From positions 1 through 29,450 of the forward strand of contig DASTHP010000188.1 of assembly GCA_035718125.1 (NCBI GenBank): a stretch of 29,450 nucleotides of DNA. The letters are read 5' to 3'. Positions 5,270 to 23,951 of the stretch are shown here, piece by piece. The translations under genes were made by a program, and so were the position numbers. The notes beneath the pieces were generated by a model. That model saw nothing but the letters and a program-made list of their open reading frames with translations, did not search any database and was not told the DNA's origin. The stretch comes from Burkholderiales bacterium (GTDB taxonomy: Bacteria; Pseudomonadota; Gammaproteobacteria; Burkholderiales; SG8-39). Every line of letters begins with the position of its first letter. The first letter of the stretch is position 1.

Positions 5270-5962
5270 ATGGCGGGCTCGGTATTGGTGGTGGAGAACG
5301 AGGAACCGGTGAGGCAGCTGCTTGCCGGCAATCTGCAGAGCGCGGGTTACCAGGTGCATTGCGCGGGCGATGTCGCCCAGGCCGAAACGATGATGCGTAC
5401 GGTCCGCCCGGACCTGGTGGTGCTCAACTGGATCCTGCCGGGAATTCCCGGGTTGCCGTTCGCCCGGCACCTGCGCGGCGACCGGCGCACCAAGGACATC
5501 TCGATCGTGCTGATCAGCGACCGCGCAGCCGAACAGGACAAGGTCGCCGCGCTGGAGGGCGGGGCGGACGACTACGTCACCAAGCCGTATTCCTGCAGGG
5601 AGCTGCTGGCGCGCATCAAGGCGGTGATGCGCCGGCGCGCGCCCCAGCTCGCCGACAGCGTGATCGAGAGCGGCGGGCTGCAGCTGGATCCGGCGGCGCG
5701 GCGCGTCAGCGCCGGCAATCGCGAGATCGAGCTGTGGACCACCGAGTTCCGGCTGCTGCATTTCTTCATGACGCATCCGGGGCGCATCTTCAGCCGCGCC
5801 ACGCTGCTCGACGAGGTCTGGGGCCACGACGCCTGCGTCGAGGAGCGCACCGTCGACGTCCACATCCGCCGCCTGCGCCAGGGGCTGGCGCCCGCCGGCT
5901 GCGACGTGCCGATCGAGACTGTGCGCGGCCTCGGCTACCGCTTCCGGGCCGAGCCCTGCTGA
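5270..5962 (+). CDS. PhoB-like OmpR-family regulator with a degenerate (pseudo-)receiver domain
   Basis: The winged-helix domain is close to PhoB (TEFRLLHFFMTHP, RTVDVHIRRLR, TVRGLGYRF). The receiver has VVENE and DLVVLNWILPG, i.e. Asn in place of the conserved Asp residues. Confidence 0.9.
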   Translation: MAGSVLVVENEEPVRQLLAGNLQSAGYQVHCAGDVAQAETMMRTVRPDLVVLNWILPGIPGLPFARHLRGDRRTKDISIVLISDRAAEQDKVAALEGGADDYVTKPYSCRELLARIKAVMRRRAPQLADSVIESGGLQLDPAARRVSAGNREIELWTTEFRLLHFFMTHPGRIFSRATLLDEVWGHDACVEERTVDVHIRRLRQGLAPAGCDVPIETVRGLGYRFRAEPC

Positions 5963-7366: not shown

Positions 7367-7452
7367 GAATGCAGTGCGCGAGCGCTGGATTGCCGGAGCC
7401 CAGACTAGCGCAGGCCGGGCACGGCGATGACGCGGGCTCGTGCACCTGGCGA

Positions 7453-7468
7453 TAGCTCCATCGGACTA
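7453..7468. promoter_or_regulatory. Putative EPS-locus operator (TAGCTC-CATC-GGACTA) in the divergent wcaJ/epsA region
   Basis: Imperfect copy of the TAGTCC-N4-GGACYA dyad seen at 8986, 16374 and 22540. Confidence 0.4.
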
Positions 7469-7511
7469 GCGCCGCGACGCGCCATGCCGCCTCGCGGGCC
7501 GACGGCCTTTT

Positions 7512-7554
7512 GGTGCGACAGCGTACATACCGCCGCCGGCGCACAGGCTACGCT
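7512..7554 (+). promoter_or_regulatory. CRP-geometry dyad (GGTGC-GACAGC-GTACA) plus -10 TACGCT; promoter of epsA
   Basis: Dyad 7512-7527, 21-nt gap, TACGCT 7549-7554, which puts the dyad centre at about -41.5. SD AGGA before GTG 7616. Confidence 0.68.
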
Positions 7555-7615
7555 GCGTTCCAGGGTGTCAGGCCGCTTGTTGGTTTCGTGACTGCCTACC
7601 ATTGACAGGATCGCC

Positions 7616-8494
7616 GTGCTACTCAGCCAAGCGCAGACGCCGCATCGCCAGAAGCTCCTGCCGCCCGCATTCGCGGATGGGGTCGTGGACTACGCGAGCC
7701 CCGCCGGGGAGACCATCGCCGCCAACGGCAATCCGCAAGCGCTGAGCGACCTCGACGTCGAAATCCTGATGCTCAATCTGGACGCCTCCCTCAGGGTGTA
7801 CGAGCGCGAGCATTTCTTCAGCTGGACACAGGGCGTGCTGCAGAGCCTGATCAAGCATGAAGTCCTGGTCTGCGCCTTGCACAGCGGCGAACCGCCGACG
7901 CTGCGCGCCGACAGCTTCTCGATGGTTGCGGCGGAGCAGGCGCACTTCGGCGAGCTGTTCGTGCGCGACGCGTCGGTCGCGCTGGGCCTGATCAAGAGCT
8001 GGGAAGACCGCGGGTTCCGGCCGCTGATCTGCGATGCCACCGACGCGCCGTTCTCGCGCGGCCTGTTCGCGCAGGAACTCGGGCGCGTGAGCGCCACGCA
8101 GATCCTGGCGCACGGCACGCACGACGCGCAGGGACGCACGCGCGGCTTCTACGCGTTCGTCTGCGCTCCGGGAACGCTCGGCCCGCGGCACGCCTACCTG
8201 GCGCGCCTGGTGACGCCTTCCCTGCACGCCGCCTGGGTGCGCACCGAGGTCAACGGCCGCGCCAAGGGCAACGACCCGGTGCCACGCGAGCAAGCCGGAA
8301 GGATCACCACGCGCGAGGAAGAGATCCTGCGCTGGGTCGCGCTCGGCAAGAGCAACTTCGAGATCGGCGCCATCCTCGGCATCAGCCCTCTGACCGTGAA
8401 GAACCATGTGCAGAAGATTCTGCGCAAGCTGAATGTCGTCAACCGCGCCCAGGCCGTCGGCAAGGCCTCGGAACTGCGCATGCTCAGGAACTGA
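7616..8494 (+). CDS. epsA: LuxR-family transcriptional regulator, EpsA type
   Basis: C-terminal LuxR HTH (TTREEEILRWVALGKSNFEIGAILGISPLTVKNHVQKILRKLNVVNRAQAV); N-terminal REHFFSWTQGVLQSLIKHE region without REC; position next to the priming transferase and epsEFG. Confidence 0.85.
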   Translation: MLLSQAQTPHRQKLLPPAFADGVVDYASPAGETIAANGNPQALSDLDVEILMLNLDASLRVYEREHFFSWTQGVLQSLIKHEVLVCALHSGEPPTLRADSFSMVAAEQAHFGELFVRDASVALGLIKSWEDRGFRPLICDATDAPFSRGLFAQELGRVSATQILAHGTHDAQGRTRGFYAFVCAPGTLGPRHAYLARLVTPSLHAAWVRTEVNGRAKGNDPVPREQAGRITTREEEILRWVALGKSNFEIGAILGISPLTVKNHVQKILRKLNVVNRAQAVGKASELRMLRN

Positions 8495-8517
8495 CCGCGG
8501 ATGCGCGGCGCCCAACC

Positions 8518-8889
8518 GTGAACCGGATCGCTGCCTGCAGTTTGTCACTGCTGCTCGCCGCGTCGCTGCACGCCCTGCCGGCCCAGGCCGCGACGCTCGG
8601 CGGCGGCATTGCGGGCGGCTCCTGCGGACCCGGCATCGACCTGGTCAAGGCCGGCGCCACGACCGACCTCAAGGCGACCGATTTCAATCCTGTGCTGGCC
8701 TCTGCCAACGGTACGGCCGCGGGGCCGGAGGGCGCAGAGCGCCGCGACCCGCCGGGCGCCGTGGTACAGCAAGCACAATGGATACGGCGTACCGACAATG
8801 CGGTCGCCGAACCCGGCATCGGGGTACTGCTGGTCGCGGGGCTTCTCGGCATGTGGGCCGTGGCCAGGCGACGCAATCTTTCGTCCTGA
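8518..8889 (+). CDS. Small secreted protein with a degenerate PEP-CTERM-like sorting signal (VAEPG-TM-RRR)
   Basis: Signal peptide ending AQA; C-terminus VAEPGIGVLLVAGLLGMWAVARRRNLSS; GTG start. Confidence 0.7.
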   Translation: MNRIAACSLSLLLAASLHALPAQAATLGGGIAGGSCGPGIDLVKAGATTDLKATDFNPVLASANGTAAGPEGAERRDPPGAVVQQAQWIRRTDNAVAEPGIGVLLVAGLLGMWAVARRRNLSS

Positions 8890-8985
8890 GCGTTTCCCGT
8901 TCCGCGGCATTGATCCGGTCCTCGGCGCTCCGGCGCACACGCCGGCGCCCGCTTGGCGTTCCGGGCGGAGCAGGCTCGGCCCCCG

Positions 8986-9039
8986 TAGTCCGACCGGACC
9001 AACGCCGACGTTTCCTGCACAACGTTGCGCGCCTAAGCT
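8986..9039 (+). promoter_or_regulatory. Putative EPS operator (TAGTCC-GACC-GGACCA) plus -10 TAAGCT; promoter of the epsEFG operon
   Basis: Dyad 8986-9001, 32-nt gap, TAAGCT 9034-9039, SD GAGG, ATG 9060. Confidence 0.6.
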
Positions 9040-9059
9040 GCAAGGCAGCGAGGTCCGCC

Positions 9060-9908
9060 ATGCAGAACATGCCGAAAGTCCGCTTCACGCCACTCCACGC
9101 AGCGCGCCAGCTGCTGTGGATCCTGTTTGCCGCGCTGCTCACCGCGACGCCGGCGCTTTCCCAGACGCGCGATCCCGCCCGCTCGAACGAAGCGCTCGGC
9201 GCGGGCGACGGCGTGCGCGTCACGGTGTTCCAGAATCCGGACCTGACGACCGACGCCCGCATCTCCCCCAGGGGCACCATCGTGTTCCCGCTGGTCGGCG
9301 AGATCGAGCTGGGTGGATTGACGCCGGCGCAGGCGGGCAACCGCATCGCCGAGCAGCTGCGCCGTGGCGGCTTCATGGTCAGGCCGCAGGTCGCCGTCTC
9401 CATCCTCCAAGTGCGCAGCAGGCAGGTGCACGTGCTCGGGCAGCTGCAGCGTCCCGGCAGCTACGTGCTGGAGGACACGGGCGCACGCCTCACCGACATC
9501 CTGACGCTGGCGGGCGGCATCAATGCCACCGGCGCCGACACGGTGACGGTGCTGACGCACCGCGAGGGCAAGGCGCAAACCTGGGCCATCAACCTGCCGG
9601 CGATCTTCCGCGGCGGCAGCGGCGCGAACAACATCCAGATCGAGAACGGCGACACCATCTTCGTCGAGCGTGCGCCGGTGTTCTACATCTACGGCGAGGT
9701 GCAGCGCGCCGGCGCCTATCGGCTGGAGCCGAACATGGTCGTGATGCAGGCGCTCGCCCTTGGCGGCGGGCTCACGCAGCGCGCCACCGAACGCGGCATC
9801 GGCATTCACCGGCGCTTGCCCGACGGCAAGTTCACGAAACACGAGGCGAGGCTCACGGATCCGGTTCAGGCGGAGGACATCGTCTTCGTCCGCGAGAGCC
9901 TGTTCTAG
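9060..9908 (+). CDS. epsE: Polysaccharide export (OPX) protein, EpsE type
   Basis: Poly_export motif LGAGDGVRVTVFQNPDL...GTIVFPLVGEIELGGLT plus two SLBB domains; ends DIVFVRESLF; SPI-type signal; SD GAGG. The ORF-track start at 8433 is over-extended. Confidence 0.9.
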   Translation: MQNMPKVRFTPLHAARQLLWILFAALLTATPALSQTRDPARSNEALGAGDGVRVTVFQNPDLTTDARISPRGTIVFPLVGEIELGGLTPAQAGNRIAEQLRRGGFMVRPQVAVSILQVRSRQVHVLGQLQRPGSYVLEDTGARLTDILTLAGGINATGADTVTVLTHREGKAQTWAINLPAIFRGGSGANNIQIENGDTIFVERAPVFYIYGEVQRAGAYRLEPNMVVMQALALGGGLTQRATERGIGIHRRLPDGKFTKHEARLTDPVQAEDIVFVRESLF

Positions 9909-9920
9909 CCGGCGCCCATC

Positions 9921-11351
9921 GTGAACCTGCAGCAGTTCCTGCGCGCGCTGCGCGCACGCTTCGGAGTGTTCATGCTGGTCCTGGGCGCCACCATGCTCGC
10001 CGCCGCGGTCGCGAGCCTGATGCTGGCCAAGACCTACAAGGCGACGGTGACGCTGCTGATGGACGCCCGCAACGAGCAATCGCTGAGCGGCGCGCAGCGC
10101 CCGCTCATCCTCCCCCTGGAGAGGCTGGCTTTCCTCGAGACGCAGAAGGACATCCTCACCAGCAAGAAGGTGGCGCGCAAGGTGGTGCAGGACCTGAAGC
10201 TGGCCGAGGAGCCGGCGGTGCGCATGATCCTGGGAGACGAGCCGGCCGGCGCGGCGCCGATCGAGGATCGCGCGGTCGACGCGGTGCTGAAGAAGCTGAA
10301 GGTCGAGACCTCGCAGAGCAACGTCATCCGGGTGAGCTACGCGTCGCCCGATGCGGCGGCCGCGGCGCAGATTGCCAATGCCTTCGCCGGCGCCTATATC
10401 GACACGCTGCTGCAGCTGCACGTGGAGCCGGCCCGCGAAGCGACGGCGTGGTTCGAGGAGCAGCTCAAGCGCCTGCGCGCCAGCCTCGAGGAGGCGCAGG
10501 CGCGGCTCACCGAGAACTACCAGCAGCGCGAGATCGTCGCGGCCGACGAGCGCCTGGATGTCGAGAACAGCCGGCTGCAGGCGCTGTCGGACGAAACGGT
10601 CAGGGCGCAGGAGCGCAGCTTCCAGTGGGACAGCCGCGAGCAGCAGGCGCGCAACGCGGTGCGCCGGGGCGCGTCGCCCGAGCGGCTGCCGGACGTGCTC
10701 GACAACTCGTTCATCCAGCGGCTCAAGGGCGACCTGCTGCTCGGCGAGGCGCGGCTGAAGCAGCTGGCGACCCAGTACGGGCAGAATCACCCGCATTACC
10801 AGCGGCAGGTGTCCGAGAACCAGAGCCTGCGCGAGAAGCTCGACGCCGAGATGGCGAAAGTGGTGGCCAGCGTCGGCAGCTCGGCGCGCCAGAGCCGCGA
10901 CCGCGAGGCGGCGCTGGCGCAGGCGACGGAGGCGCAGAGGAAGCGCATGCTCGGCCTCAAGCAGGGCCGCAACGAGCTCACGGTGCTCAGGCGCAACGTG
11001 GAATCGGCGGAACGCGCCTACGACACTGCCTTGCAGCGCTCGGTCGCGAGCCAGGTGGACAGCCGCGTCAACCAGACCAGCGTCACGGTGCTCAGCCCTG
11101 CCGTCGTGCCGGGCAGGCCCGCCAGCCCGCGCATGGACCTGAACCTTGCCTTGGCCGCCGCGGTCGGCGTCATGCTCGGCATCGGCATCGTCCTGCTGCT
11201 GGAGATGACGGACCGGCGCGTGCGTTCGCAGGACGACCTCGAGAACGCCTGGGATGTGCCGTTGCTCGGTGAGCTCAAGCCCTGGAAGCCCGCCCGCCGG
11301 CTCCTCGGCCAGTCGACGAAGGAACCCCGTGCATTGCCCAATCCAGGCTGA
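9921..11351 (+). CDS. epsF: Chain-length determinant / polysaccharide co-polymerase, EpsF type
   Basis: Two TM segments flanking a long periplasmic coiled coil; VLSPAVVP...SPR motif before TM2; no fused kinase. Confidence 0.9.
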   Translation: MNLQQFLRALRARFGVFMLVLGATMLAAAVASLMLAKTYKATVTLLMDARNEQSLSGAQRPLILPLERLAFLETQKDILTSKKVARKVVQDLKLAEEPAVRMILGDEPAGAAPIEDRAVDAVLKKLKVETSQSNVIRVSYASPDAAAAAQIANAFAGAYIDTLLQLHVEPAREATAWFEEQLKRLRASLEEAQARLTENYQQREIVAADERLDVENSRLQALSDETVRAQERSFQWDSREQQARNAVRRGASPERLPDVLDNSFIQRLKGDLLLGEARLKQLATQYGQNHPHYQRQVSENQSLREKLDAEMAKVVASVGSSARQSRDREAALAQATEAQRKRMLGLKQGRNELTVLRRNVESAERAYDTALQRSVASQVDSRVNQTSVTVLSPAVVPGRPASPRMDLNLALAAAVGVMLGIGIVLLLEMTDRRVRSQDDLENAWDVPLLGELKPWKPARRLLGQSTKEPRALPNPG

Positions 11352-11360
11352 AGGCGACCG

Positions 11361-12251
11361 ATGAGCAACTCCGACAACGTCCTGCCCATCGAGGGCTTCG
11401 GCCGCCTGGTGGCGCGCCAGGACGGCAGGCTCGGCAACATCCTGCTCGCGGACGGCAAGATCAGCGCACGCGACATCGAGCCGATACTCGAGATCCAGCG
11501 TGCCCGCGGCATCCGCTTCGGCGAGGCGGCGCTGCGCCTGCGGCTCATCACCCGGGACGATCTGCGCGACGCCATTGCCAGGCAGTACGGGCTGCTGCAC
11601 CTGCTGCCGGGCAGCGGCAGCATCAGCCGCGAGCTGGTCGCCGCCTACGAGCCGTTTCATCCGCGCGCCGAGGAATTGCGCGCCCTGCGCACGCAGCTGC
11701 TGATCCGCTGGGCCAACGCCAGGGTGCGGCACCGCATGCTGGCCATCGTCAGCCCGGGCGCCGGCGAAGGGCGCAGCTATGTCGCCGCCAATCTCGCCGT
11801 CGTGTTCTCCCAGCTCGGCCAGCGCACGATCCTGATCGACGCCGACCTGCGCAACCCGCGGCAGCACCGCATCTTCGACGTTCCCGACCGCGTCGGCCTG
11901 TCGTCGGTCCTTTCGGGCCGCGCCGACCGCAGCGCGGTGGTGCCGCTGCCCCAGTTCGGCACGCTGTCGCTGCTGCCGGCGGGCGCCTGTCCGCCCAACC
12001 CGCAGGAACTGCTGCTGCGGCCGGTGCTGACCACGCTGCTGGACGAGCTGCGCGAGGAGTTCGACGTCGTGCTGTTCGACACGCCGCCGGCCAGCCTTTA
12101 CGCCGACGCGCAGAGCCTGGCGTTCCGCGCCGGCAGCGCCATCGTGCTGGCGCGCAAGGACCACACCGGCATCGCCGCGACCGCCAGCACCATCCGCGTG
12201 CTGAGCGATACCGGTACCAGCGTGGTCGGCACGGTGTTCAACTCCATCTGA
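11361..12251 (+). CDS. epsG: BY-kinase-like protein, EpsG type, with N-terminal MshEN-type motif
   Basis: Walker A variant SPGAGEGRS, Walker A' ILIDADLRNP, Walker B VVLFDTPP. Residues 23-75 hold two 24-aa RLG/RFG...Q motifs. Confidence 0.9.
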   Translation: MSNSDNVLPIEGFGRLVARQDGRLGNILLADGKISARDIEPILEIQRARGIRFGEAALRLRLITRDDLRDAIARQYGLLHLLPGSGSISRELVAAYEPFHPRAEELRALRTQLLIRWANARVRHRMLAIVSPGAGEGRSYVAANLAVVFSQLGQRTILIDADLRNPRQHRIFDVPDRVGLSSVLSGRADRSAVVPLPQFGTLSLLPAGACPPNPQELLLRPVLTTLLDELREEFDVVLFDTPPASLYADAQSLAFRAGSAIVLARKDHTGIAATASTIRVLSDTGTSVVGTVFNSI

Positions 12252-12270
12252 CCGGATCCGGCTGAGCGCA

Positions 12271-13692
12271 ATGGCCGCCGCCCAGGCGCGACAGGCATTC
12301 ACCGGGCTGGCGGGCATCGCCCTGCTTGGCGTGCTCTGGGGCGTGGTCGTCGCGGTGGCGGGCGTGAACGCCCTGATCCTGTGCGTGTCGCTGATCGGCT
12401 GCGCGTTCATCCTGTACGACTTCCGCATCGGCGTCATGTTGCTGATCCTGATGATGCCGCTCGCGACCAGCCCGCTGATGCCGCGCGCCATGCTCGGCAT
12501 CACGGGCCTCAATCCGCTGAACCTGCTGCTCCTCGGCACGCTCGGCGCCTGCCTGCTGCACGGGCTGTCCGACGGCAGCCTGCGCGGCTTCCTGCCGCGG
12601 CCGCTGCTCTGGCTGTATGTCGCGCCGATCCTGGCGGCCGGGGCGCTCGGCGCGCAGCACGTCGGCGAGATCGTGCCCGCGTTCCATGCCTACGGCCTGC
12701 TCGAGTTCCAGGACGTTGCCGGCTACGCGCGCGACCTGGTGGCGAAGCCCCTGTCGATGGTGGTCTTCGCGCTGCTGGTCGGCGCGGCCGTGGCGAAATC
12801 GGCGCAGCCGGAGAAGCTCCTGCTGCCGATGGTGGTCTCGATCTGGGTGGCCGGCCTGAGCGTTCTCGCATTCGTCGCGCAGTCGGGGCTCGGCCTGCAC
12901 CAGCTCGCGAGCAGCGATGCGCGCGAGTTCCTGTCGACGCTGGGCATGCACGCCAACGATCAGGGCCGGCTGTATGCGTTCGCCTACGCCTTGCTGCTGT
13001 TCACCTGGGCCGAAGCGAAGGAGCCCGGATTGCGGGTCGCGCTCCTGGCTACGATGGCGCTGGTCGCCACGGCGCTGTTGCTGACCTTCTCGCGCGGCGC
13101 ATTCGCCGCCTTCATCCTGGTCAACGTGCTGTTCCTGCTCTGGCGCCGCAGCGTGAAGACCCTGGTGCTGTTCGGGCTCGCGGCCTCGCTCGCGCTGTTC
13201 GCGCTTCCCGCCGCGGTCTACGAGCGCCTGTCCAGCGGCGAGGGCGCAGGATTCGACGCCATCAGCGCCGGCCGCATCGACTGGCTCTGGCTGCCGCTGC
13301 TGCCCGAGGTCCTGCGCAGCCCGGTCTACGGCAGCGGCCTGGGCTCGATCCTGTGGTCGGAGCCGATGCGCGTGGGCGGCGGGGCGAACGTGCTGCTCAC
13401 CACGCACCCGCACAACGCCTACCTGCAGGCGCTTCTGGACATGGGTGCGCTCGGCCTGCTCCTGCTGTGCGCCTATTTCGCGCACGTCTGCAGGCAATTC
13501 TGGAAGCTGGGCGCCGATCCTGCCGTGGACCCCGCCCTGCGCGGGTTCTTCCAGGGCGCGGCGGCCGGATTGCTCGGCTTCCTCGCCTCCAGCATCACCG
13601 ACGGCAGCCTGCTGCCGCGTCCCGAGCAGGCTTTGCTGTGGCTGGCGATCGGCATGATGTACGGTCAACGCAGCAAGCGGTTGGTGCCGTGA
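12271..13692 (+). CDS. O-antigen ligase/Wzy-like polymerase (Wzy_C family)
   Basis: About 12 hydrophobic segments; motifs TFSRG, SAGRIDWLW and THPHNAYLQALLDMGALGL. Confidence 0.85.
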   Translation: MAAAQARQAFTGLAGIALLGVLWGVVVAVAGVNALILCVSLIGCAFILYDFRIGVMLLILMMPLATSPLMPRAMLGITGLNPLNLLLLGTLGACLLHGLSDGSLRGFLPRPLLWLYVAPILAAGALGAQHVGEIVPAFHAYGLLEFQDVAGYARDLVAKPLSMVVFALLVGAAVAKSAQPEKLLLPMVVSIWVAGLSVLAFVAQSGLGLHQLASSDAREFLSTLGMHANDQGRLYAFAYALLLFTWAEAKEPGLRVALLATMALVATALLLTFSRGAFAAFILVNVLFLLWRRSVKTLVLFGLAASLALFALPAAVYERLSSGEGAGFDAISAGRIDWLWLPLLPEVLRSPVYGSGLGSILWSEPMRVGGGANVLLTTHPHNAYLQALLDMGALGLLLLCAYFAHVCRQFWKLGADPAVDPALRGFFQGAAAGLLGFLASSITDGSLLPRPEQALLWLAIGMMYGQRSKRLVP

Positions 13693-15212
13693 CGCTTGCG
13701 GGCGCCGCATGGGTGGCGGATGACGGCGCCGGCCCCGAGCACGCGGTGCCCGCTGCGCCGCGGCTCGGTCAGCGCGCCCTGCTGCTCGGCGCCGCCAACG
13801 CATTCGACGTGGCCTTGCAGTTCCTGCTGCCGGTGGTGCTGGTGCGATGCCTGGACGCCGAGGCCTTCGGCGAGTACCGGCTGCTGTGGCTGGTGGCGGG
13901 GACGGTCCTCGGCGTCGCCACGCTGGCGATGCCGCAAAGCCTGTATTACTACCTGCCGCGCTCGGACGCCACCGCCAAGCGCCTGTATGTCAACCAGACG
14001 CTCGCCTTCCTCGCCATCGCCGGGCTGGCGGCGGCATGGGCGGTCAGTTCCTGGAACCCGCTGCTGCCCGAGAAGCTGCGTCTCCTGGCGCGGCACGAGC
14101 TCATCCTGCCGGCGTTCATCGTGCTCTGGGTCGTGGCCTCGCTGCTGGACATGCTGCCCACGGCGGAGGAGCGCGTGCGCTGGCAGGCGCAGGCGACCGT
14201 CGGCCTCGCCGTGCTGCGTGCCGTATCGCTGTCCCTGGCTGCCGTGCTGACGCGCGAGCTGGGCCCCGTGCTCGTGGTGCTGCTCGCCTTCGTGGCAATC
14301 AAGGTGTTGCTGCTGCTGGTGTACGTGGCCCGCCACCACGGCCTGCGCGGACCGGTCCTGCGCCCGGGGGCGTTCGCGGATCAGCTGCGCTACGCGGCGC
14401 CGTTCGGGGCGGCGGGGGCCCTCTATATCCTGCGCACCCAGTCGGATCAATGGGTGGCCGCAGCGCTGTTTCCGCTGGGCTTGTTCGCAGCGTTCTCCAT
14501 TGCCGCGGTGCTCGGGCCGCTGATGAACCTGTTTCGCCAGTCGGTCAACTACGCCTTCCTGCCCGTGATGAGCCGCCGGCATGCCGTCGGCGACATCGCC
14601 GGCATGCTCGCGCTCAACAGCCGCGGCAACATCATGGTCGGCGCGCTCGTGTTCCCGCTGTTCGCCCTCGCCTTCGTGCTGGCGGAGGACCTGGTCACGC
14701 TGGTCTACACCGCCGCCTACCTGGATGCCGCCCCCGTGATCCGCGTCTGCATCGTCGGCATCGCCGCCCTCGCCATCGAGCTCTCGAGCGTGACGCTGCT
14801 GCTGCGGCAGTCGGTGTTCGTGATGCTGGTCAACATCATGGCGCTGGTCCTCGCCGTATCGCTCAACTGGTATGCGGCGCTGAACATCGGACTTGCGGGA
14901 GCGGCGCTGGGCACCGTGGCGGTGATCTACCTCGATCGCCTCGTCACCCTGTGGCGCATCGCGCGCATCGCCGGAATCCCGATCCGGCGGCTGCAGGACT
15001 GGACCACCCTCGCCCTGCTGCTCGCGTTCGCCATGCTGTCTGCGCTGCTCGCGTGGGCCACGATCGCCGGCGTGTTCGCCGCCAGCGGGCCGCTGGTGCG
15101 CTTGCTCGTCGGCGCGGCGGTCATGGCGGCGGCCTACGCCGCGCTCGTCGCGGGTTCGCATACGGGCCGGGACACGCTCGCCGCCCTGCGCGGCCGGCCG
15201 CACGGGACCTGA
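13689..15212 (+). CDS. wzx: Wzx-type polysaccharide flippase
   Basis: GTG start overlapping the upstream TGA; multi-TM protein with LPVVLVRCLDAEAFGEY, QLRYAAPFG and IGLAGAALGT patterns typical of MOP flippases. Confidence 0.82.
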   Translation: MTLAGAAWVADDGAGPEHAVPAAPRLGQRALLLGAANAFDVALQFLLPVVLVRCLDAEAFGEYRLLWLVAGTVLGVATLAMPQSLYYYLPRSDATAKRLYVNQTLAFLAIAGLAAAWAVSSWNPLLPEKLRLLARHELILPAFIVLWVVASLLDMLPTAEERVRWQAQATVGLAVLRAVSLSLAAVLTRELGPVLVVLLAFVAIKVLLLLVYVARHHGLRGPVLRPGAFADQLRYAAPFGAAGALYILRTQSDQWVAAALFPLGLFAAFSIAAVLGPLMNLFRQSVNYAFLPVMSRRHAVGDIAGMLALNSRGNIMVGALVFPLFALAFVLAEDLVTLVYTAAYLDAAPVIRVCIVGIAALAIELSSVTLLLRQSVFVMLVNIMALVLAVSLNWYAALNIGLAGAALGTVAVIYLDRLVTLWRIARIAGIPIRRLQDWTTLALLLAFAMLSALLAWATIAGVFAASGPLVRLLVGAAVMAAAYAALVAGSHTGRDTLAALRGRPHGT

Positions 15213-15221
15213 GGCGACGCC

Positions 15222-16373
15222 ATGGCGCGCCTGCTGTTCGTCACCGGCTCGCTGTGCCACGGCGGCGCCGAGCGCCACGCCGTCACGCTCATGAACCGCC
15301 TGGCGGAGCGCCGGCACGAGTGCCACGCGGTCTATGTCAAGAGCGGGGCGGACCAGCTGCCGCGCATCCGCCTGCGCGGCAGCGGCACCGTGCTCTGCCT
15401 CGAGGCGGCGCGCTACCTGGATTGGGCGGCATTGCGGCGCTTTGCCGCCCACCTCGAGCGCATCGAGCCTGCCGTGATCGTGGCGGCGAATCCCTACGCG
15501 CTGATGTATGCCACGCTGGCAATGCGCCTGGCGCACCGGCGCGTGCCCACGATCGTCACTTTCCATTCGACCCGGCTGCTCGGGTGGAAGGAGCAGCTGC
15601 AGATGGCCGCGTACCGCCTGCTGTTCTGGGCCGCGGACTGCACGGTCTTCGTCTGCCAGCGCCAACTGGGGTACTGGCGGCATCGCGGCGTGCTCTCCCG
15701 GCGCAGCGAGGTAATCCACAACGGCGTGGACACGGATGCGTTCAGCAGCGCGCGCGATGCCGGTGCGGGCGGCCGGATGCGCGCCGCGCTCGGCTTTCGC
15801 GACGTCGACTACGTGATCGGCCTGGCAGCGGTGCTGCGCCCGGAGAAGAATCCCCTGCAGCTGGTGGATGCAATCGCGCTGCTGCGCGCCCGTGGGATTC
15901 CCGCCAAGGCGCTGATCGTGGGCGACGGCCCCCTGCGTGCCGCGGTACTGGACCGCGCCTGCGAGCGCATGGTCGCAAGCGACATCGTCATCTCGGGTTT
16001 CCAGCAGGACGTCCGGCCGCACATCGCCGCCTGCGACGTCATGGCCCTGTGCAGCCTCACCGAGGCCTTTTCCCTGGCGGCGCTCGAAGCGATGGCGATG
16101 GGCAAGCCGGTGGTGCACGCCAACGTCGGCGGCGCCGCCGAGATGATCTCGGAAGGCCACAACGGCGCCCTGTTTCCGGTCGGCGATACCGGGGCCTTCG
16201 CCGCCGCCCTCGCGACGCTTGCGGACCGCAGCGCCTGCAGGCGCATGGGCGGGAACGCCCGCCGGGTGGTGCAAGCGCTGTTTTCGGAGGGCGCCATGGT
16301 GGACCGCTACGAACGGCTGCTCCTGGAGCTCGCCGGCAAGCGGCTGCGGCCGAAAGAGGAACTGGCGCACTGA
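15222..16373 (+). CDS. Glycosyltransferase family 4 (GT-B)
   Basis: SLCHGGAERH, IHNGVD, LRPEKN and EAFSLAALEAMAMGKPVV (EX7E). Confidence 0.92.
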   Translation: MARLLFVTGSLCHGGAERHAVTLMNRLAERRHECHAVYVKSGADQLPRIRLRGSGTVLCLEAARYLDWAALRRFAAHLERIEPAVIVAANPYALMYATLAMRLAHRRVPTIVTFHSTRLLGWKEQLQMAAYRLLFWAADCTVFVCQRQLGYWRHRGVLSRRSEVIHNGVDTDAFSSARDAGAGGRMRAALGFRDVDYVIGLAAVLRPEKNPLQLVDAIALLRARGIPAKALIVGDGPLRAAVLDRACERMVASDIVISGFQQDVRPHIAACDVMALCSLTEAFSLAALEAMAMGKPVVHANVGGAAEMISEGHNGALFPVGDTGAFAAALATLADRSACRRMGGNARRVVQALFSEGAMVDRYERLLLELAGKRLRPKEELAH

Positions 16374-16428
16374 GGGTCCATACGGACCATGAGGCGCTGG
16401 CAAGGGCTACACGGCGCTGCCGCAGCAT
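16374..16428 (+). promoter_or_regulatory. Putative EPS operator (GGGTCC-ATAC-GGACCA) plus -10-like CAGCAT; internal, possibly leaderless promoter of the epimerase
   Basis: Perfect GGTCC-N4-GGACC inverted repeat, 33-nt gap, CAGCAT 16423-16428, ATG 6 nt later. Confidence 0.55.
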
Positions 16429-16434
16429 GCGTGC

Positions 16435-17489
<1,055 letters not shown>

Positions 17490-17493
<4 letters not shown>

Positions 17494-18605
17494 CGCCGCC
17501 CGCGGTTCTCGTCCTCGGGCCGCAGCGCGCGGCGGTCAGCGGCGTCAGCACGCACGTGAACACCCTGCTCGCCTCGGATCTCGCGGACGATTTCTCGCTG
17601 ATCCACTTCCAGGTGGGTGGCGAAGGCCTCAAGGAGAGCCGGGCCGGTCAGCTCGCGCGGCAGGCGTCGAGTCCGTTTCGCCTGGCGGTGGCAATCCTCA
17701 GGCGCGGCGCCGCGATCGTGCATATCAACAGTTCGCTCAACGCACGCGCCTACTGGCGCGATCTCGTGCACATGCTCGTCGCCAAGGCCTGCGGGGCGCG
17801 GGTCCTGTTCCAGGTGCACGGCGGCAAGCTGCCGGCGGATTTCTGCGGCAACAACCGGCTGCTGGCGGCCCTGTTGCGTCGCACGCTGCGGCTTCCGGAC
17901 GCCATCGTGGTGCTCGGCAGCATCGAGCTCGACGCATACCAGCGGTTCGTCCACCGGGAGCAGGTGGTGGCGCTGCCCAACGGCATCGACTGCCGGCCCT
18001 ATGCGAGCCTCCTGCGCGAGCGGACCGATCCGGCTGCTGCGCTTCGCCTGGCATACGTGGGCCGGCTGGCGAAAGAGAAGGGGCTCTACGAGCTGCTGAC
18101 GGGCTTGCAGCTCGCCCATGCCGCGGGCGTACGCGCCCGGCTCGTCATTGCCGGCGCCGGCCCGGAAGAGGACAAGCTGCGCCGCTTCGCGGCTGCGGCC
18201 GGCATCGGACACGCGGTCTCGCTTGCCGGCCCGGTGTGCGGCGCGGGCAAGTCGGCGCTGTTCGCGCAGTCCGACCTGTTCGTACTGCCCAGCCACGCTG
18301 AAGGCCTGCCGTACGCGCTGCTGGAAAGCATGGCGGCAGGCGTCCCGGCCATCGTCACCAGGGTCGGCGCCATTCCCGACGTCGTCCTCGACGGCATTCA
18401 CGGCCTGTTCGTTCCCCTGCACGACCCGCAGGCGATCGCGCACGCCATTGCCAGGCTGGACGCGGACCGGGAGCTGCTGGCGCAGATGGGCATCGCCTGC
18501 CGCGCGAGGATCGCCGCGAGCTACAGCGTGCAGCGGCTGGCGGGCGACGTGCGCCGACTGTATGCGGACATGTTCGCCGGCAAGCATGCCGACGCGCTGC
18601 ACTGA
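17490..18605 (+). CDS. Glycosyltransferase family 4 (GT-B)
   Basis: GTG overlapping the upstream TGA; LPNGID, YVGRLAKEKG and EGLPYALLESMAAGVPAI. Confidence 0.92.
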
Positions 18606-18632
18606 CCGCTGCCAACTTCGGGAAGACAAAGC

Positions 18633-20507
18633 ATGTGCGGCATTGCTGGATGGATCGCAGGACCGGAGGGCCCGCTCAACCGGGGCACGCTCGAGTCCAT
18701 GCTGCTCGCCATCGCCCATCGAGGGCCGGACGATTCGGGCATCGCGCAGTTCCGCAGCCATGGCACGGGCCACGACGTGTTTCTCGGGCACCGGCGCCTG
18801 GCGATCATCGACCCCGATGGCGCGCGCCAGCCGATGTGCGACGCCGCCGCCGGCCTGGCAGTGACCTTCAACGGGGAGATCTACAACTTTCGCCAGTTGC
18901 GCGAGGAGCTGAGCGGGCTCGGCTACCGCTTCACGCGCGACTCCGACACCGAAGTGCTGCTGCGCGCCTACCAGCACTGGCAATGCGCCGTGGTGGATCA
19001 CCTGCGCGGCATGTTCGCGTTCGCGATCTGGGACGCCGGCAAGGAGCGCCTGCTGCTGGCGCGCGACCGCTTTGGCGAAAAGCCCCTGTTCCTGCACGAG
19101 AGCGCGAACGGTCTGTGCTTCGCCTCGGAGATCAAGGCGCTGCTGCGCGTTCCCGGCGTGAAGTGCGCCGTGGATCCGGCGGCGGTCTGGGACTACCTCG
19201 CCTATCGCTACGTGCCGGGACCGCAGACCCTGTTCAACGGCATCCGCAAGCTGCAGCCCGGGACGATAGCCGTCTGGGAGCGCGGCAAGCTCACGGAGTC
19301 GCGCTACTGGTCGCCGCCGGATCGCGCCATGGGCGGCTGCGCGAACCCGCCGGCCGACGTCGCCGGCACGTTCCTGTCGCGGCTGGACGAGGCGGTCAGT
19401 CTGCAGATGGTGAGCGACGTGCCCTTCGGCGCGTTCCTGTCGGGCGGCCTGGACTCCTCGATGATCGTTGCGCTCATGAGCCGCCACAATGCGAAGGTCA
19501 ACACCTTCTCCGTCGGCTTCGGCGAAGCGGGCTACAGCGAGCTGGGCTACGCCGCGCAAGTGGCGCGGCACTTCGGCACGACGCACCACGAGATCACGGT
19601 CACCGATCGCGACCTCATCGACCGGCTGCCGGCGCTGGTCGCCTTTCGCGATGCGCCGGTGTCGGAGCCGTCCGACATTCCGATCTACCTGCTGGCCCGC
19701 GAGGCCGCGCGCAGCGTGAAGATGGTGCTGACCGGCGAAGGCAGCGACGAAGTGCTCGGCGGCTATCCGAAGCACGTCGTCGAGCGTTACGCCCGGCCCT
19801 ACCAGTGGCTGCCGGCAAGCTTGCGCCAACGGCTGGTCGAGCCGCTCGCGCAAGCGCTGCCCTACGGCTTTCGCCGCGTCAAGACCGCCGTGGCCAACCT
19901 GGGCATCGCGGATTGGCGCGAGCGTTACGTGCGCTGGTTCGGCGCGCTGAGCGTCGCCGAGCGCGGCCGGCTGGCAGTGCGGCCCATCGAGCGCGCTGCG
20001 CCGGCCGCTGCGGCGCCCTTCGACGCGCATCCGCGCAACAGCTCGCTGCGGCGCATGCTGTACTTCGATCAGGCGAGCTGGCTGCCCGACAACCTGCTCG
20101 AGCGTGCGGACCGCATGACCATGGCGGCCTCGCTCGAGTCGCGCGTGCCGTTCCTGGACCACGAACTGGCCGCGTTCGTTTCGTCCCTCCCGGACCGCTT
20201 CCGCGTACGCGGCCGCACCACCAAGTGGATACTGCGGGCCGCGGCAAGCAACCTGCTGCCCGAGCGCATCCTGACGCGGCCGAAAGTGGGCTTTCGCGTG
20301 CCGGTGGGCGACTGGTTTCGCGGTCCGATGCGCGACTTCCTGGCGGGCCACCTGCAAGGCGCCAGCTCGATGACCCGTGCTTACTACGATGCCCGGGTGC
20401 TGGACGGGATCCTCGCCGGGCACTGGAGCGGCAGGCAGAACAGCGAAAAGCTCCTGTGGGCGCTTCTCAATCTCGAACTGTGGCACCGGCACTATGTCCA
20501 GGCATGA
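18633..20507 (+). CDS. asnB: Asparagine synthase (glutamine-hydrolysing)-like amidotransferase
   Basis: N-terminal MCGIAG (Ntn Cys), HRGPD, FNGEIYN, SDTEV, RDRFGEKPL, LSGGLDSS, LTGEGSDE and SLESRVPFLD. Confidence 0.93.
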   Translation: MCGIAGWIAGPEGPLNRGTLESMLLAIAHRGPDDSGIAQFRSHGTGHDVFLGHRRLAIIDPDGARQPMCDAAAGLAVTFNGEIYNFRQLREELSGLGYRFTRDSDTEVLLRAYQHWQCAVVDHLRGMFAFAIWDAGKERLLLARDRFGEKPLFLHESANGLCFASEIKALLRVPGVKCAVDPAAVWDYLAYRYVPGPQTLFNGIRKLQPGTIAVWERGKLTESRYWSPPDRAMGGCANPPADVAGTFLSRLDEAVSLQMVSDVPFGAFLSGGLDSSMIVALMSRHNAKVNTFSVGFGEAGYSELGYAAQVARHFGTTHHEITVTDRDLIDRLPALVAFRDAPVSEPSDIPIYLLAREAARSVKMVLTGEGSDEVLGGYPKHVVERYARPYQWLPASLRQRLVEPLAQALPYGFRRVKTAVANLGIADWRERYVRWFGALSVAERGRLAVRPIERAAPAAAAPFDAHPRNSSLRRMLYFDQASWLPDNLLERADRMTMAASLESRVPFLDHELAAFVSSLPDRFRVRGRTTKWILRAAASNLLPERILTRPKVGFRVPVGDWFRGPMRDFLAGHLQGASSMTRAYYDARVLDGILAGHWSGRQNSEKLLWALLNLELWHRHYVQA

Positions 20508-20529
20508 ACTCGTGGATACCGGCGGCGGC

Positions 20530-22542
20530 ATGGAGACCGCCGTCGTGCGCACGGGCGCCAGGGAATGGCTCAGGTGGCGCATCAATCGCCTGCGCTGCAT
20601 GTCGCCGGCGGAGATCCCGCACCGCCTGATGCGCGCCGTGTCCGGCGTCGCGGAGAGCGCCGCGCTGCTGTTCGGGCCGCCGCGCGTGCCGGCCCCCGAC
20701 CTCGGCGCGGCTTCCAAGCCATGGATCCGCCGCAGCGCCAGCGTGGAGGTTGCCCCGTACACGGCGGCCGCACAGCGCGTTGCCGCCGGCCTGCTCGACG
20801 TGTTCGCGCTGCGCAACGCCGACCTCGGCTCGCCGCCGCGCTGGAACCAGGACCCGAAATCGAGAATCGTGTCGCCGAGCAGCTTCGGCAAGCATCTCGA
20901 CTATCGCGATGCGCGGCTGGTGGGCGACATCAAGTATCTCTGGGAACCCAACCGGCACCTGCATCTCGTGACCCTGGCGCAAGCCTACGCGCTCAGCGGC
21001 GACACCGCGCACCTGGAGGTGATGCGGCTGCACCTGGAATCCTGGTTCGCCGCCTGCCCCTGCCGCATGGGCCCGAACTGGTCGAGCGCGCTCGAGGCGG
21101 CGATCCGTCTCGTCAACTGGTCGGCCGCCTGGCAACTCGCCGGCGGCGTGCGCTCGCCGCTGTTCGACGGCGAGCGCGGCGAGCGCCTGCGCCGGCAGTG
21201 GCTCGAGTCGGTGTACCAGCATGCGCGCTTCGTGCGCGGCTACTTCTCGCGCCACTCCTCGGCCAACAACCATCTCATCGGCGAGGCGGCCGGGCTGTTC
21301 ATCGCCGCCCTCACCTGGCCGCATTGGCCGGCATCCGCGCGCTGGCTCGCGGCGGCCAAGGGCATCCTCGAGGCCGAGGCGCAGCGCCAGATCGCCCCCG
21401 ACGGCGTGAACCGGGAGCAGGCGATGTCCTACCAGCAGTTCGTGCTCGACTTCCTGCTGATCTGCCTGCTGGCCGGCAGGGAGAACGGCGTATGGTTCTC
21501 CGCCGTCTACGAATCGCGGGTCGAGGCGATGCTCGAGTACCTCGCCTCGGTCATGGACGCAGGCGGCCATGTGCCGATGTTCGGCGATGCCGACGACGGC
21601 CGCGTGGTGGGACTGGCGCCGGCCGCGGACTTCTCGTACTACCGGTCCCTGCTCGCGACGGGGGCCATCGTGTTCGGCAACGCCGAGTTCAAGCGCAAGG
21701 CCGGGCCGCTCGACGACAAGACGCGCTGGCTGTTGGGCGAACAAGCCGACGCGCGGTTCGATGCGCTGGGCGCGCCCGCCGCCCTTTCGCTGCCGCGCCA
21801 GAGCTTCCCCGCCGGCGGCTACCACGTCCTCGGCTGCGACTTCGACACGGACCGCGAGATCCGCCTGGTCGTCGACGCCGGGCCACTGGGGTACAGCGCC
21901 ATCGCCGCCCACGGGCATGCGGACGCCCTGTCGTTCACGCTGTCGGTCGGCGGGCTGGAGTTCCTGGTCGACCCCGGCACCTATGCGTACCACACGCAAG
22001 GCGAGTGGCGCCGGTACTTCCGCGGCACCGGCGCGCACAACACCGTGCGGGTGGATTCGCGCGACCAGTCGGAGTCCGGCGGCAATTTCATGTGGCTGCG
22101 CAAGGCGCGCGCGGGCTGCAGCCTGTGGGAGAGCACGCCCGATCACGATCGGTTCGAAGGCTGGCAGGACGGTTACCGGCGGCTGCAGGACCCGGTCCTG
22201 CATCGCCGGCGGATCGTGCTGCACAAGGCCTCGAGGCGCGTGTTCATCGAGGACTGGCTGCACATGACGGGCCAGCACGACATCGAGCTGCTGTTCCATT
22301 GCAGCGAGCAATGCGTGGCCGAGGCAACCCCGGGCGGCTACGCCCTGCGCCAGGGCGGCAGGACGCTTCACCTCGCCCTGCCGCAGATCGAGGCGGCAAG
22401 CTCCCGCATCCACGTCGGCAGCGTCGCGCCCATCTTCGGCTGGGTGTCGCGGCGGTTCGACGACAAGCAGCCGGCACCGAGCATCGTCTGGCGGTGCCGG
22501 CTCCAGGGCGATGCCGTCCTGCGAACCGAGATCGCCTGCTGA
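20530..22542 (+). CDS. Heparinase II/III-like protein (alternative start ATG 20494)
   Basis: DIKYLWEPNRH, ANNHLIGE, GVNREQ, MFGDADDG, AHGHADALSF, DPGTYAY and GAHNTV motifs. No signal peptide apparent. Confidence 0.85.
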   Translation: METAVVRTGAREWLRWRINRLRCMSPAEIPHRLMRAVSGVAESAALLFGPPRVPAPDLGAASKPWIRRSASVEVAPYTAAAQRVAAGLLDVFALRNADLGSPPRWNQDPKSRIVSPSSFGKHLDYRDARLVGDIKYLWEPNRHLHLVTLAQAYALSGDTAHLEVMRLHLESWFAACPCRMGPNWSSALEAAIRLVNWSAAWQLAGGVRSPLFDGERGERLRRQWLESVYQHARFVRGYFSRHSSANNHLIGEAAGLFIAALTWPHWPASARWLAAAKGILEAEAQRQIAPDGVNREQAMSYQQFVLDFLLICLLAGRENGVWFSAVYESRVEAMLEYLASVMDAGGHVPMFGDADDGRVVGLAPAADFSYYRSLLATGAIVFGNAEFKRKAGPLDDKTRWLLGEQADARFDALGAPAALSLPRQSFPAGGYHVLGCDFDTDREIRLVVDAGPLGYSAIAAHGHADALSFTLSVGGLEFLVDPGTYAYHTQGEWRRYFRGTGAHNTVRVDSRDQSESGGNFMWLRKARAGCSLWESTPDHDRFEGWQDGYRRLQDPVLHRRRIVLHKASRRVFIEDWLHMTGQHDIELLFHCSEQCVAEATPGGYALRQGGRTLHLALPQIEAASSRIHVGSVAPIFGWVSRRFDDKQPAPSIVWRCRLQGDAVLRTEIAC

Positions 22543-22594
22543 GCCGACCGGACTAGTCGCGCTCGTCCGGGGCGTCAAACGCCTCCCCCAAACT
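22540..22594 (+). promoter_or_regulatory. Putative EPS operator (TGAGCC-GACC-GGACTA) plus -10-like CAAACT; internal promoter of the dehydrogenase
   Basis: Strong right half-site GGACTAG and GACC spacer identical to the 8986 copy; 33-nt gap; CAAACT 22589-22594; SD AAGGAG at 22621. Confidence 0.5.
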
Positions 22595-22637
22595 GCAGTT
22601 CTTCCACCGATTGCGCAATCAAGGAGATTCATCGGTC

Positions 22638-23951
22638 ATGCGGATCAGCGTCCTGGGTCTGGGGTACGTCGGCACCGTGACAGCGGGCTGCCTCGCGCAG
22701 CAGGGCCACGATGTGATCGGCGTCGACCCGGAGCCGCGCAAGGTGGACCTGATCAACGCCGGCCGCTCGCCCATCATCGAGAAGGACATCGGCAAGATCA
22801 TCGAGCAGCAGGTGGCGGCGGGCAGGCTCGCCGCCAGCATCGAGGCCATCGACGCGGTGCAGCGCACCGATCTGGTCATGGTGTGCGTGGGCACGCCGAG
22901 CCGCGCCAACGGCGACATCGACCTCAAGTACATACGGCGGGTCGCCGAGCAGATCGGCGAAGCCATGCGCTGCCACCACGGCGCGCCGGCGGTGGTGATC
23001 CGCAGCACGATGCTGCCCGGCACCATGCGCAACGTGGTGATCCCGGCGCTCGAAGCCGCATCGGGGCGCAAGGCGGGCGCGGAGTTCGGCGTGTGCATCA
23101 ACCCGGAGTTCCTGCGCGAAGGCAGCGCGGTGCACGACTACTTCAACCCGCCCAAGACGGTGATCGGCGAACTCAACGAAGCCAGCGGCAAGCTGCTGGC
23201 GGGTCTCTACGCCCACCTCGATAAGCCCCTGGTGCGCACCGACATCGAGACGGCCGAGATGGTGAAGTACGCCGACAACGCCTGGCACGCATTGAAGGTG
23301 GGATTCGCCAACGAGATCGGCAACGTGTGCAAGGGACTTGATGTCGACGGCCACAAAGTGATGGACATCTTCTGCAAGGACACCAAGCTCAACCTGTCGC
23401 CCTACTACCTCAAGCCCGGCTTCGCCTTTGGCGGCTCCTGCCTGCCCAAGGACCTGCGCGCGCTGCTGTACAAGGCGAAGATGCTGGACGTCTCCGTGCC
23501 CATCCTGGCGGCGATCCTGCCCAGCAACGAGCAGCAGATCGAACGTGGGGTACGTGCGGTGGTCGAGCGCGGCAGCAAGAAAGTCGGCGTGCTCGGCTTT
23601 TCCTTCAAGGCCGGCACCGACGACCTGCGCGAGAGCCCGGTGGTCGAGCTGACCGAGCGGCTGCTCGGCAAGGGGTTCGACCTCAGGATCTACGACAGCA
23701 ACGTCAGCATGGCGCGCATCCACGGGGCGAACCGCGACTACATCCTGAACCGCGTACCGCACATCTCGCGCCTGATGGTGTCGAGCATCGGCGAGGTGAT
23801 GAGCCACGCCGACACGATCGTGATCGGCAACGCCGCGCCCGAGTTCGTCGATGTGCCTGGGCGCCTGCGCGGCAGCCAGGGCATCGTCGACCTGGTGCGC
23901 ATCAACGGCGCGCGCAGCGTCGCCGGCGTCTACGAGGGGCTGTGCTGGTGA
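22638..23951 (+). CDS. algD: GDP-mannose 6-dehydrogenase-like (AlgD-type nucleotide-sugar dehydrogenase)
   Basis: MRISVLGLGYVG, CVGTPS, NPEFLREG, KLNLSPYYLKPGFAFGGSCLPKD (catalytic Cys), FKAGTDDLRESP, IHGANRDYI and terminal EGLCW, all collinear with Pseudomonas AlgD as I recall it. Confidence 0.85.
   Translation: MRISVLGLGYVGTVTAGCLAQQGHDVIGVDPEPRKVDLINAGRSPIIEKDIGKIIEQQVAAGRLAASIEAIDAVQRTDLVMVCVGTPSRANGDIDLKYIRRVAEQIGEAMRCHHGAPAVVIRSTMLPGTMRNVVIPALEAASGRKAGAEFGVCINPEFLREGSAVHDYFNPPKTVIGELNEASGKLLAGLYAHLDKPLVRTDIETAEMVKYADNAWHALKVGFANEIGNVCKGLDVDGHKVMDIFCKDTKLNLSPYYLKPGFAFGGSCLPKDLRALLYKAKMLDVSVPILAAILPSNEQQIERGVRAVVERGSKKVGVLGFSFKAGTDDLRESPVVELTERLLGKGFDLRIYDSNVSMARIHGANRDYILNRVPHISRLMVSSIGEVMSHADTIVIGNAAPEFVDVPGRLRGSQGIVDLVRINGARSVAGVYEGLCW

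Follow-up and report, generated by a model that had tools for sequence, protein, structure and literature searches.

Regulators with a GerE-type helix-turn-helix (HTH) domain, such as NarL, bind DNA as dimers at two inverted heptamers separated by 2 bp (a 7-2-7 arrangement), and the NarL heptamer is TACYYMT. A further group of regulators is the EpsA family (TIGR03020) of Methylobacillus-type loci, which is associated with XrtB and PEP-CTERM proteins. The DNA studied here is the 29,450-bp contig DASTHP010000188.1 from a Burkholderiales bacterium, referred to below as the window; it is the entire contig C188 of a metagenome-assembled genome (G000; 2.59 Mb, 69% G+C, 78.5% complete), and a Wzx/Wzy-type polysaccharide cluster occupies it from position 5963 onward. 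The cluster encodes an EpsA of this family. The protein passed the TIGR03020 cut-off of 170 bits (191.5 bits, or 191.8 bits in a six-frame search), carried a GerE HTH at its C-terminus (PF00196, 63.6 bits, residues 231–281) and adjoined epsE, epsF, epsG and an open reading frame (ORF) for a PEP-CTERM protein, as expected for the EpsA family. A short inverted repeat recurred in the gaps between the genes of this cluster. Judged from comparative evidence, we regard it as reasonably probable that this dyad is an EpsA box, to which an EpsA dimer would bind and from which it would activate the cluster.

A sequence-only reading of the window had proposed four copies of the dyad, and each of the four 16-mers was recovered at exactly the position given for it:

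7453–7468, no strand assigned: dyad copy 4, TAGCTCCATCGGACTA, in the divergent region between wcaJ and epsA; its stronger half is CGGACTA
8986–9001, plus strand: dyad copy 1, TAGTCCGACCGGACCA, 58 nt ahead of the epsE start codon
16374–16389, plus strand: dyad copy 2, GGGTCCATACGGACCA, beginning 1 nt past the stop codon of a GT4 glycosyltransferase gene
22540–22555, plus strand: dyad copy 3, TGAGCCGACCGGACTA, overlapping the TGA stop codon of a heparinase-like gene

The placement of these sites in the largest gaps of the locus was also borne out, as the four largest gaps from wcaJ onward were those of copy 4 (249 nt), copy 1 (170 nt), copy 3 (95 nt) and copy 2 (61 nt). The form first given to the motif, GTCC-N4-GGAC (4-4-4), did not hold; the sites were better described as a 7-2-7 palindrome, TRGTCCG-NN-CGGACYA.

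EpsA orthologues (50–88% identity) were found in nine further genomes of the same genus, and the loci of six of these were compared, making seven with the window. The six loci were syntenic to their contig ends, and the encoded proteins were 62–97% identical. All four sites recurred at equivalent positions while their flanks diverged. Copy 4 was identical or near-identical throughout, with TAGCYCCATCGGACTA between wcaJ and epsA in seven of seven loci. Ahead of epsE, TAGTCC-N4-GGAYCA was found in five of six loci, the sixth having the degenerate TGGTCCGATCGGCTCA. Past the GT4 stop codon stood GGTCCATACGGACCA in three of three loci, identical in G019 and G017, and TGAKCCGWCCGGACTA was present at the heparinase-like stop codon in four of four. 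At the position of copy 3, the genomes G005 and G003 carried the perfect palindrome TGGTCCGACCGGACTA. Alignment of the gaps with MAFFT gave a mean column identity of 55% for the epsE gap, where 10 of the 34 invariant columns fell within dyad copy 1, and of 47% for the divergent region (254 nt), where 12 of the 33 invariant columns fell within the 16 nt of copy 4. In gaps that have otherwise diverged, conservation is highest in the dyads.

Statistics within the window would by themselves leave room for chance joined with the shared ancestry of close genomes, in which case the dyad would have no function; related genomes are not independent samples. The exact GTCC-N4-GGAC core occurred three times against 0.64 expected, a count reached in 2 of 100 shuffles, and one of the three cores (5402) was intragenic. 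When one mismatch was allowed, no excess of the core was seen in the window (18 against 16.5 expected), and the 16-mer consensus with up to three mismatches occurred six times there against 2.66 expected. Such window-only shuffle tests of the loose core and the 16-mer were too weak to carry the claim. The comparative data, by contrast with these tests, put the dyad far beyond chance, and the following results show how.

A 16-column matrix trained only on the sites of other genomes ranked the window copies 1, 2, 3 and 9 across the whole 2.59-Mb genome and both strands, with copy 4 as the top match genome-wide. Exact matches to the IUPAC pattern TRGYYCNNNCGGACYA numbered three each in G019 (4.0 Mb) and G017 (3.9 Mb), every one of them in the eps cluster region; one of the three in each genome was a fifth copy, described below. 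Over whole genomes, the pattern was rarer than its reversed control. In G005 and G003, additional exact matches lay at the same gene junctions in further cluster fragments on other contigs, for example after the heparinase-like gene (TGGTCCGACCGGACTA) and ahead of epsE. Across the genus, the 10 genomes with a window-type EpsA averaged 3.1 exact places per genome, against 0.6 in the other 15, and paralogous EpsA loci on separate contigs had dyad copies of their own. The profile of the exact pattern across 61 relatives was too rare and too clade-specific to inform beyond the genus.

The same searches revealed a fifth class of sites, perfect dyads of the form TAGTCCGTTCGGACCA located 29–31 kb downstream of epsA, past the end of the window contig:

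G019, contig C2, 67841: perfect TAGTCCGTTCGGACCA
G017, contig C4, 277474: perfect TAGTCCGTTCGGACCA
G005, contig C285, 9770: perfect TAGTCCGTTCGGACCA
G007, contig C2, 16405: perfect TAGTCCGTTCGGACCA

In the three contexts examined (G019, G017 and G005), this dyad lay between an acyl-CoA dehydrogenase gene and a divergent gene for a REC-GerE response regulator, which was accompanied by its histidine kinase. A gene resembling those of nonribosomal peptide synthetases followed in G017.

The wider set comprised 80 EpsA loci of other species from several orders, retrieved by alignment of EpsA homologues, in which EpsA was 37–87% identical to that of the window. It included soil Burkholderiales, Usitatibacter, Steroidobacteraceae, Rhodocyclaceae, Methylophilaceae, Nitrosospira, Uliginosibacterium and Denitromonas. 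Absence of the motif from orthologous EpsA loci had been named beforehand as the outcome that would speak against an EpsA box; besides its presence at all four positions in the same-genus loci, the motif scored above 12 bits at 113 places in 69 of the 80 loci. The reversed matrix gave 12 places in 11 loci, and 20 column-shuffled matrices gave a mean of 13.1 places and a maximum of 29, so that the excess over the control matrices was nine-fold. Loci without a match mostly had degenerate copies or a solitary GAACGGACTA just past epsA. The subgroup L120, L127 and L128, in which the EpsA helix reads SPPTVKNH/MRKL, retained GAACGGACTA only. This excess across 80 species and several orders, the confinement of every exact match in two 4-Mb genomes to one cluster, and the standing of the dyads as the most conserved blocks of diverged gaps leave chance and common descent strongly disfavoured, and we hold that explanation to be highly improbable.

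More than half of the stronger places in the 80 loci (48 of the 90 above 14 bits) fell within 460 nt around the epsA start. The prevailing layout, seen in most loci, was wcaJ on the minus strand, the site, and epsA on the plus strand. Most sites were either in this position or ahead of genes for PEP-CTERM proteins; several directly preceded genes for small secreted proteins of this kind, and five of the seven tested passed TIGR02595. Automatic ORF calls in the wrong frame past several distant sites (e.g., L057, L067 and L088) were left out. One half-site was near-invariant (T 99%, A 90%, G 99%, T 97%, C 94%, C 97%, G 78%), and the opposite half was looser.

The sequence-only reading had further placed promoter-like hexamers at fixed distances of 32, 33 and 33 nt past copies 1, 2 and 3, and these distances proved exact. 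The elements that accompany the dyads in the window are as follows:

7402–7407, minus strand: -10-like hexamer TAGTCT, 45 nt from dyad copy 4 on the wcaJ side; putative wcaJ promoter
9034–9039, plus strand: -10-like hexamer TAAGCT, 32 nt past dyad copy 1
16423–16428, plus strand: -10-like hexamer CAGCAT, 33 nt past dyad copy 2
22574–22594, plus strand: promoter-like module GTCAA-N10-CAAACT, 18 nt past dyad copy 3 and kept in four genomes; its hexamer CAAACT, at 22589, is 33 nt past that copy

The spacing was retained within the genus. From dyad to hexamer it was 32 nt to TAnnCT ahead of epsE in six of six genomes, with CTAnnCTG invariant; 33 nt to CAnnMT ahead of the epimerase gene in three of three (CAACAT and CAGACT in the others); and 33 nt to CAnnCT ahead of the dehydrogenase gene in four of four. 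Preservation of the hexamer spacing in every orthologue supports the earlier proposal that the apparent single operon is re-initiated at internal promoters, and by this spacing the three may be regarded as putative promoters. In the 80 loci, a TAnnnT hexamer peaked at 44–45 nt from the site, on the wcaJ side in 33 of 48 divergent-region sites and on the operon side in 16 of 42 non-divergent ones, and a smaller class was present at 32–33 nt. The two classes were about 11 nt apart, which equals one helical turn. The part of the proposal that concerned the divergent region was upheld as to the presence of a copy and was altered as to its target: in the genus of the window, the copy is placed for wcaJ (TAGTCT, 45 nt) and not for epsA. 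In the L057–L075 clade the copy is placed for both: the same dyad was also 46–47 nt from a TATATT lying about 10 nt ahead of the epsA start codon, a sign that epsA may be autoregulated in that clade. A pentamer, GT[CA]A[TC], was located exactly 10 nt ahead of the -10-like hexamer at 26 sites (L057–L131), including the third site of the window.

A consensus scan of positions 7300–24000 gave no matches to a canonical sigma-70 promoter (-35 and -10 elements with 16–18 nt spacing) and yielded only YAnnnT -10-like hexamers, which is consistent with dependence on an activator. The same approach detected no terminator or T-tract at the sites. Sigma-54 and extracytoplasmic function (ECF) promoters were also considered and rejected by eye, as the spacings did not fit. 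Contigs from a sediment metatranscriptome were 90–99% alike across the locus; they show presence, and the sequencing runs may contain DNA. Of these contigs, one began at 9058, one began at 22614 and one ended at 22563. These ends lie near the starts predicted here and are suggestive, though contig ends cannot show transcript starts.

Two neighboring features were noted near these elements. The ATG of the epimerase gene is 6 nt past CAGCAT (16423–16437) and has no Shine-Dalgarno sequence, and this gene start may be leaderless. Upstream of epsA, a second conserved box, GTGCGAYAGCGTACATAC (7509–7529), was found about 15 nt ahead of the -10-like TACGCT (in GCTACGCT). It was conserved in five of seven same-genus loci, altered in G005, where three tandem variants occurred (GCGTGCGCCAGCGAACA), and absent in G022, and it corresponds to a CRP-like dyad described separately in the sequence-only reading.

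The positions of copies 2 and 3 within the gene run also bear on whether EpsA, if bound, would act as an activator. EpsA could instead bind as a repressor or roadblock, with read-through from a single upstream promoter being modulated at the sites. Sites 2 and 3 are right at stop codons in a same-strand gene run, in gaps of 61 and 95 nt, and no terminator-like structure precedes them. Against this, the dyads stand upstream of the conserved -10-like hexamers at fixed spacing without overlapping them, the spacing classes are one helical turn apart, as for contact with RNA polymerase on one face of the helix, and good -35 elements are lacking. We therefore judge a repressor or roadblock role to be unlikely. 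Transcription through sites 2 and 3, if the operon is read through, would equally permit the element to work at the RNA level: a short hairpin, formed in the polycistronic message, would influence processing, stability or termination. Site 2 with its flanks folded at -19.7 kcal/mol (z = -4.4), the only significant copy; the other three were no better than shuffles (z from -0.3 to -1.6). The half-sites were conserved in sequence; the variable positions were the central bases, and no changes were compensatory. Copy 4, like the majority of copies in other species, is flanked by divergently transcribed genes, and the window scan returned no Rfam match and no T-tract terminators. An RNA element is thus improbable. 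A structured RNA, terminator or repetitive extragenic palindromic (REP) element was likewise rejected as a class, with one of four copies folding significantly, no Rfam match, and a motif rarer genome-wide than its reversed control.

Returning to a DNA operator for EpsA, the dyad has the features that such an operator would show: it is a 16-bp inverted repeat, it occurs as perfect palindromes such as TGGTCCGACCGGACTA, it is restricted to the regulon, and it is conserved beside epsA across species. EpsA is the regulator most consistently found beside the site. A symmetric EpsA homodimer, joined through the N-terminal domain, was predicted with a fairly high score while the best control scored near zero; among proteins of known structure, that mark was attained by 21 of the 30 solved as pairs and by none of the 23 solved as single chains. 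The recognition helix of EpsA (SPLTVKNHVQKILRKL) was near-invariant across loci, part of that helix having served as the search pattern, and parallels the near-invariant half-site.

From these observations we infer the following mechanism. The operator would comprise 16 bp in 7-2-7 form, TRGTCCG-NN-CGGACYA, with one half near-invariant and the other often degenerate, and would be bound by a dimer of the adjacent LuxR/GerE-type EpsA. The bound EpsA would then activate weak promoters that have no recognizable -35 element. If transcription started 7 nt past the hexamer, the operator center would be about 53 bp upstream of the start in the 32–33-nt class or about 64 bp upstream in the 44–45-nt class; both positions, being one helical turn apart, would present the operator on the same face of the DNA. 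By this arrangement, the window would contain four EpsA-dependent promoters, serving wcaJ on the minus strand, epsE-epsF-epsG with later genes, the block of the TviC-like epimerase, and the block of the sugar dehydrogenase.

Several observations weigh against this assignment. Only sites 1 and 2 of the window are true dyads, and sites 3 and 4 share chiefly the right half, CGGACTA, and are poor palindromes. A center near -53 matches neither of the classical activator positions, class I or class II. In the L054–L075 clade, the wcaJ hexamer spacing sits in a block that is possibly partly coding in some genomes. Motif and family do not coincide: in TIGR03020 EpsA proteins 28–37% identical to that of the window (G012, G024, G027, G029, G035 and G055), no motif was found in the 1.5-kb flanks and no excess genome-wide, and these distant proteins include members that score higher on TIGR03020 than the window protein. 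In G049, one palindromic copy (TAGGCCGATCAGACTA) was present about 370 nt ahead of epsA, yet there was no genome-wide excess. The motif was observed for a single EpsA clade, whose members share roughly 37% identity or more with the window protein.

Other regulators are also linked to the locus. The dyad could be a real operator bound by one of these, either a REC-GerE (NarL-type) response regulator or a factor together with a PhoB-like paralogue, with EpsA acting elsewhere. A GerE-type response regulator and histidine kinase are divergent from the perfect dyad of the fifth site class (G019, G017 and G005), and in 25 of the 80 loci the neighbor of wcaJ, or the gene immediately ahead of epsA, encodes a PhoB-like paralogue. 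Within the genus, the presence of EpsA equals the presence of the cluster, judged by EpsF; EpsA is inseparable from the cluster there, and so a phylogenetic profile cannot single it out. However, the 3-kb flanks of the 80 loci did not contain the response regulator, epsA adjoins the site in most of these loci, and where paralogous EpsA loci lie on separate contigs, each has dyads of its own. PhoB-family proteins bind direct, not inverted, repeats, and a PhoB paralogue thus fits the pentamer better than the palindrome. Binding by another linked regulator is, on balance, a minor possibility.

A doubtful extension would combine both proteins in a composite promoter, with an EpsA dimer on the palindrome and the linked PhoB paralogue on the TGTCAY pentamer, in pho-box geometry 10 nt before the -10 element. 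Such promoters might gate polysaccharide genes, PEP-CTERM genes and epsA in many Betaproteobacteria and Steroidobacteraceae. The palindrome and pentamer sites are adjacent or one helical turn apart, and this proposal takes the PhoB paralogue as non-phosphorylatable, the description given to it in the sequence-only reading. A Pho box proper was considered and rejected, as the distal direct repeat expected 11 bp upstream was not conserved and the pentamer is missing from the window promoters of epsE and the epimerase gene.

The genes of the window that belong to the putative regulon or adjoin the sites are the following:

5963–7366, minus strand: wcaJ-type priming glycosyltransferase gene (TIGR03023, 503 bits), divergent from epsA
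7616–8494, plus strand: epsA, LuxR/GerE-type regulator and candidate binder (TIGR03020 and PF00196)
8518–8889, plus strand: gene for a small PEP-CTERM protein, starting 23 nt past epsA and without a dyad of its own
9060–12251, plus strand: epsE-epsF-epsG (export protein, chain-length determinant and tyrosine kinase; TIGR03028, TIGR03017 and TIGR03029), downstream of dyad copy 1
16435–17493, plus strand: TviC/WbpP-like epimerase gene (NF011728, 415 bits, under the cut-off of 760), downstream of dyad copy 2
22638–23951, plus strand: nucleotide-sugar dehydrogenase gene (TIGR03026, 415 bits), downstream of dyad copy 3

The cluster also encodes a Wzy_C protein, a Wzx-like protein, GT4 glycosyltransferases and an asparagine-synthase-like amidotransferase, and further genes follow the dehydrogenase. 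Two of its products are putative polysaccharide-cleaving enzymes, a PF14099 Polysacc_lyase (27801–28649) and the heparinase II/III-like protein (20500–22542). Residues 23–75 of EpsG (11361–12251) matched NF053729, a model of an MshE-related c-di-GMP-binding motif (41.2 bits; cut-off 38). A PhoB-like response regulator is encoded at 5270–5962, tail to tail with wcaJ, and scored 295.7 bits on TIGR02154 against a cut-off of 296.2. The PEP-CTERM ORF scored 17.1 bits on TIGR02595 (cut-off 16) in the six-frame search and 14.4 bits as the ORF alone. Though this ORF follows epsA, no exosortase (PF09721), as expected of an XrtB/PEP-CTERM system, was detected in G000 (78.5% complete), G019 or G017. One was present in G003, G005 and G007, and in G003 and G007 it adjoined an additional EpsF gene. 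In the long-contig assemblies of loci L033 (G017:C4) and L031 (G019:C2), several genes aligned in two or more frames (epsA in G017; the Wzy-like, Wzx-like, dehydrogenase and GT4 genes in G019), which probably reflects indel errors of long-read assembly and not real pseudogenes.

EpsA-type regulators adjoin polysaccharide and PEP-CTERM loci in many Betaproteobacteria of soil, sediment and wastewater, and EpsA-associated loci underlie the formation of flocs and biofilms. A defined operator would make the EpsA regulon predictable from sequence alone in uncultured lineages, and would explain how transcription of a 20-kb run of same-strand genes could be initiated at several positions. Uliginosibacterium silvisoli, Denitromonas ohlonensis and Nitrosospira sp. 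NpAV are culturable carriers of the motif that could be used for binding and reporter assays.

No operator of the EpsA family was found in the literature searched for an EpsA operator or the half-site sequence. If the assignment is right, the dyad is an operator of a LuxR-type regulator and hence of a known kind. Within TIGR03020 at large, only the clade of the window protein showed the motif. The system in which PrsK/PrsR and RpoN control pepA in the floc-forming Zoogloea and Aquincola is comparable in that both involve PEP-CTERM proteins and linked polysaccharide genes, and some of the genes preceded by the dyad are PepA-like; it differs in its element, as no sigma-54 -24/-12 element was seen at the sites by eye and the dyad is palindromic and precedes a -10-like hexamer. 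The likeness to the Pho box of PhoB is confined to the TGTCAY-like pentamer, 10 nt upstream of the hexamer at 26 sites, and to the PhoB paralogue linked to many loci. Unlike the NarL and LuxR regulators, EpsA has neither a receiver nor an autoinducer domain, and its N-terminal domain of about 220 residues is uncharacterized. Its half-site, TAGTCCG, also differs from the operators of those proteins, and the centers proposed here, near -53 and -64, differ from that of the lux box at -42.5. The half-sites nevertheless start with TA and have a pyrimidine-rich core, like the NarL heptamer. Like the NarL 7-2-7 site, the lux box and the tra box, the dyad is an inverted repeat; it spans 16 bp as two heptamers with a 2-bp gap, and its candidate binder is a GerE-type protein that is predicted to form a dimer.

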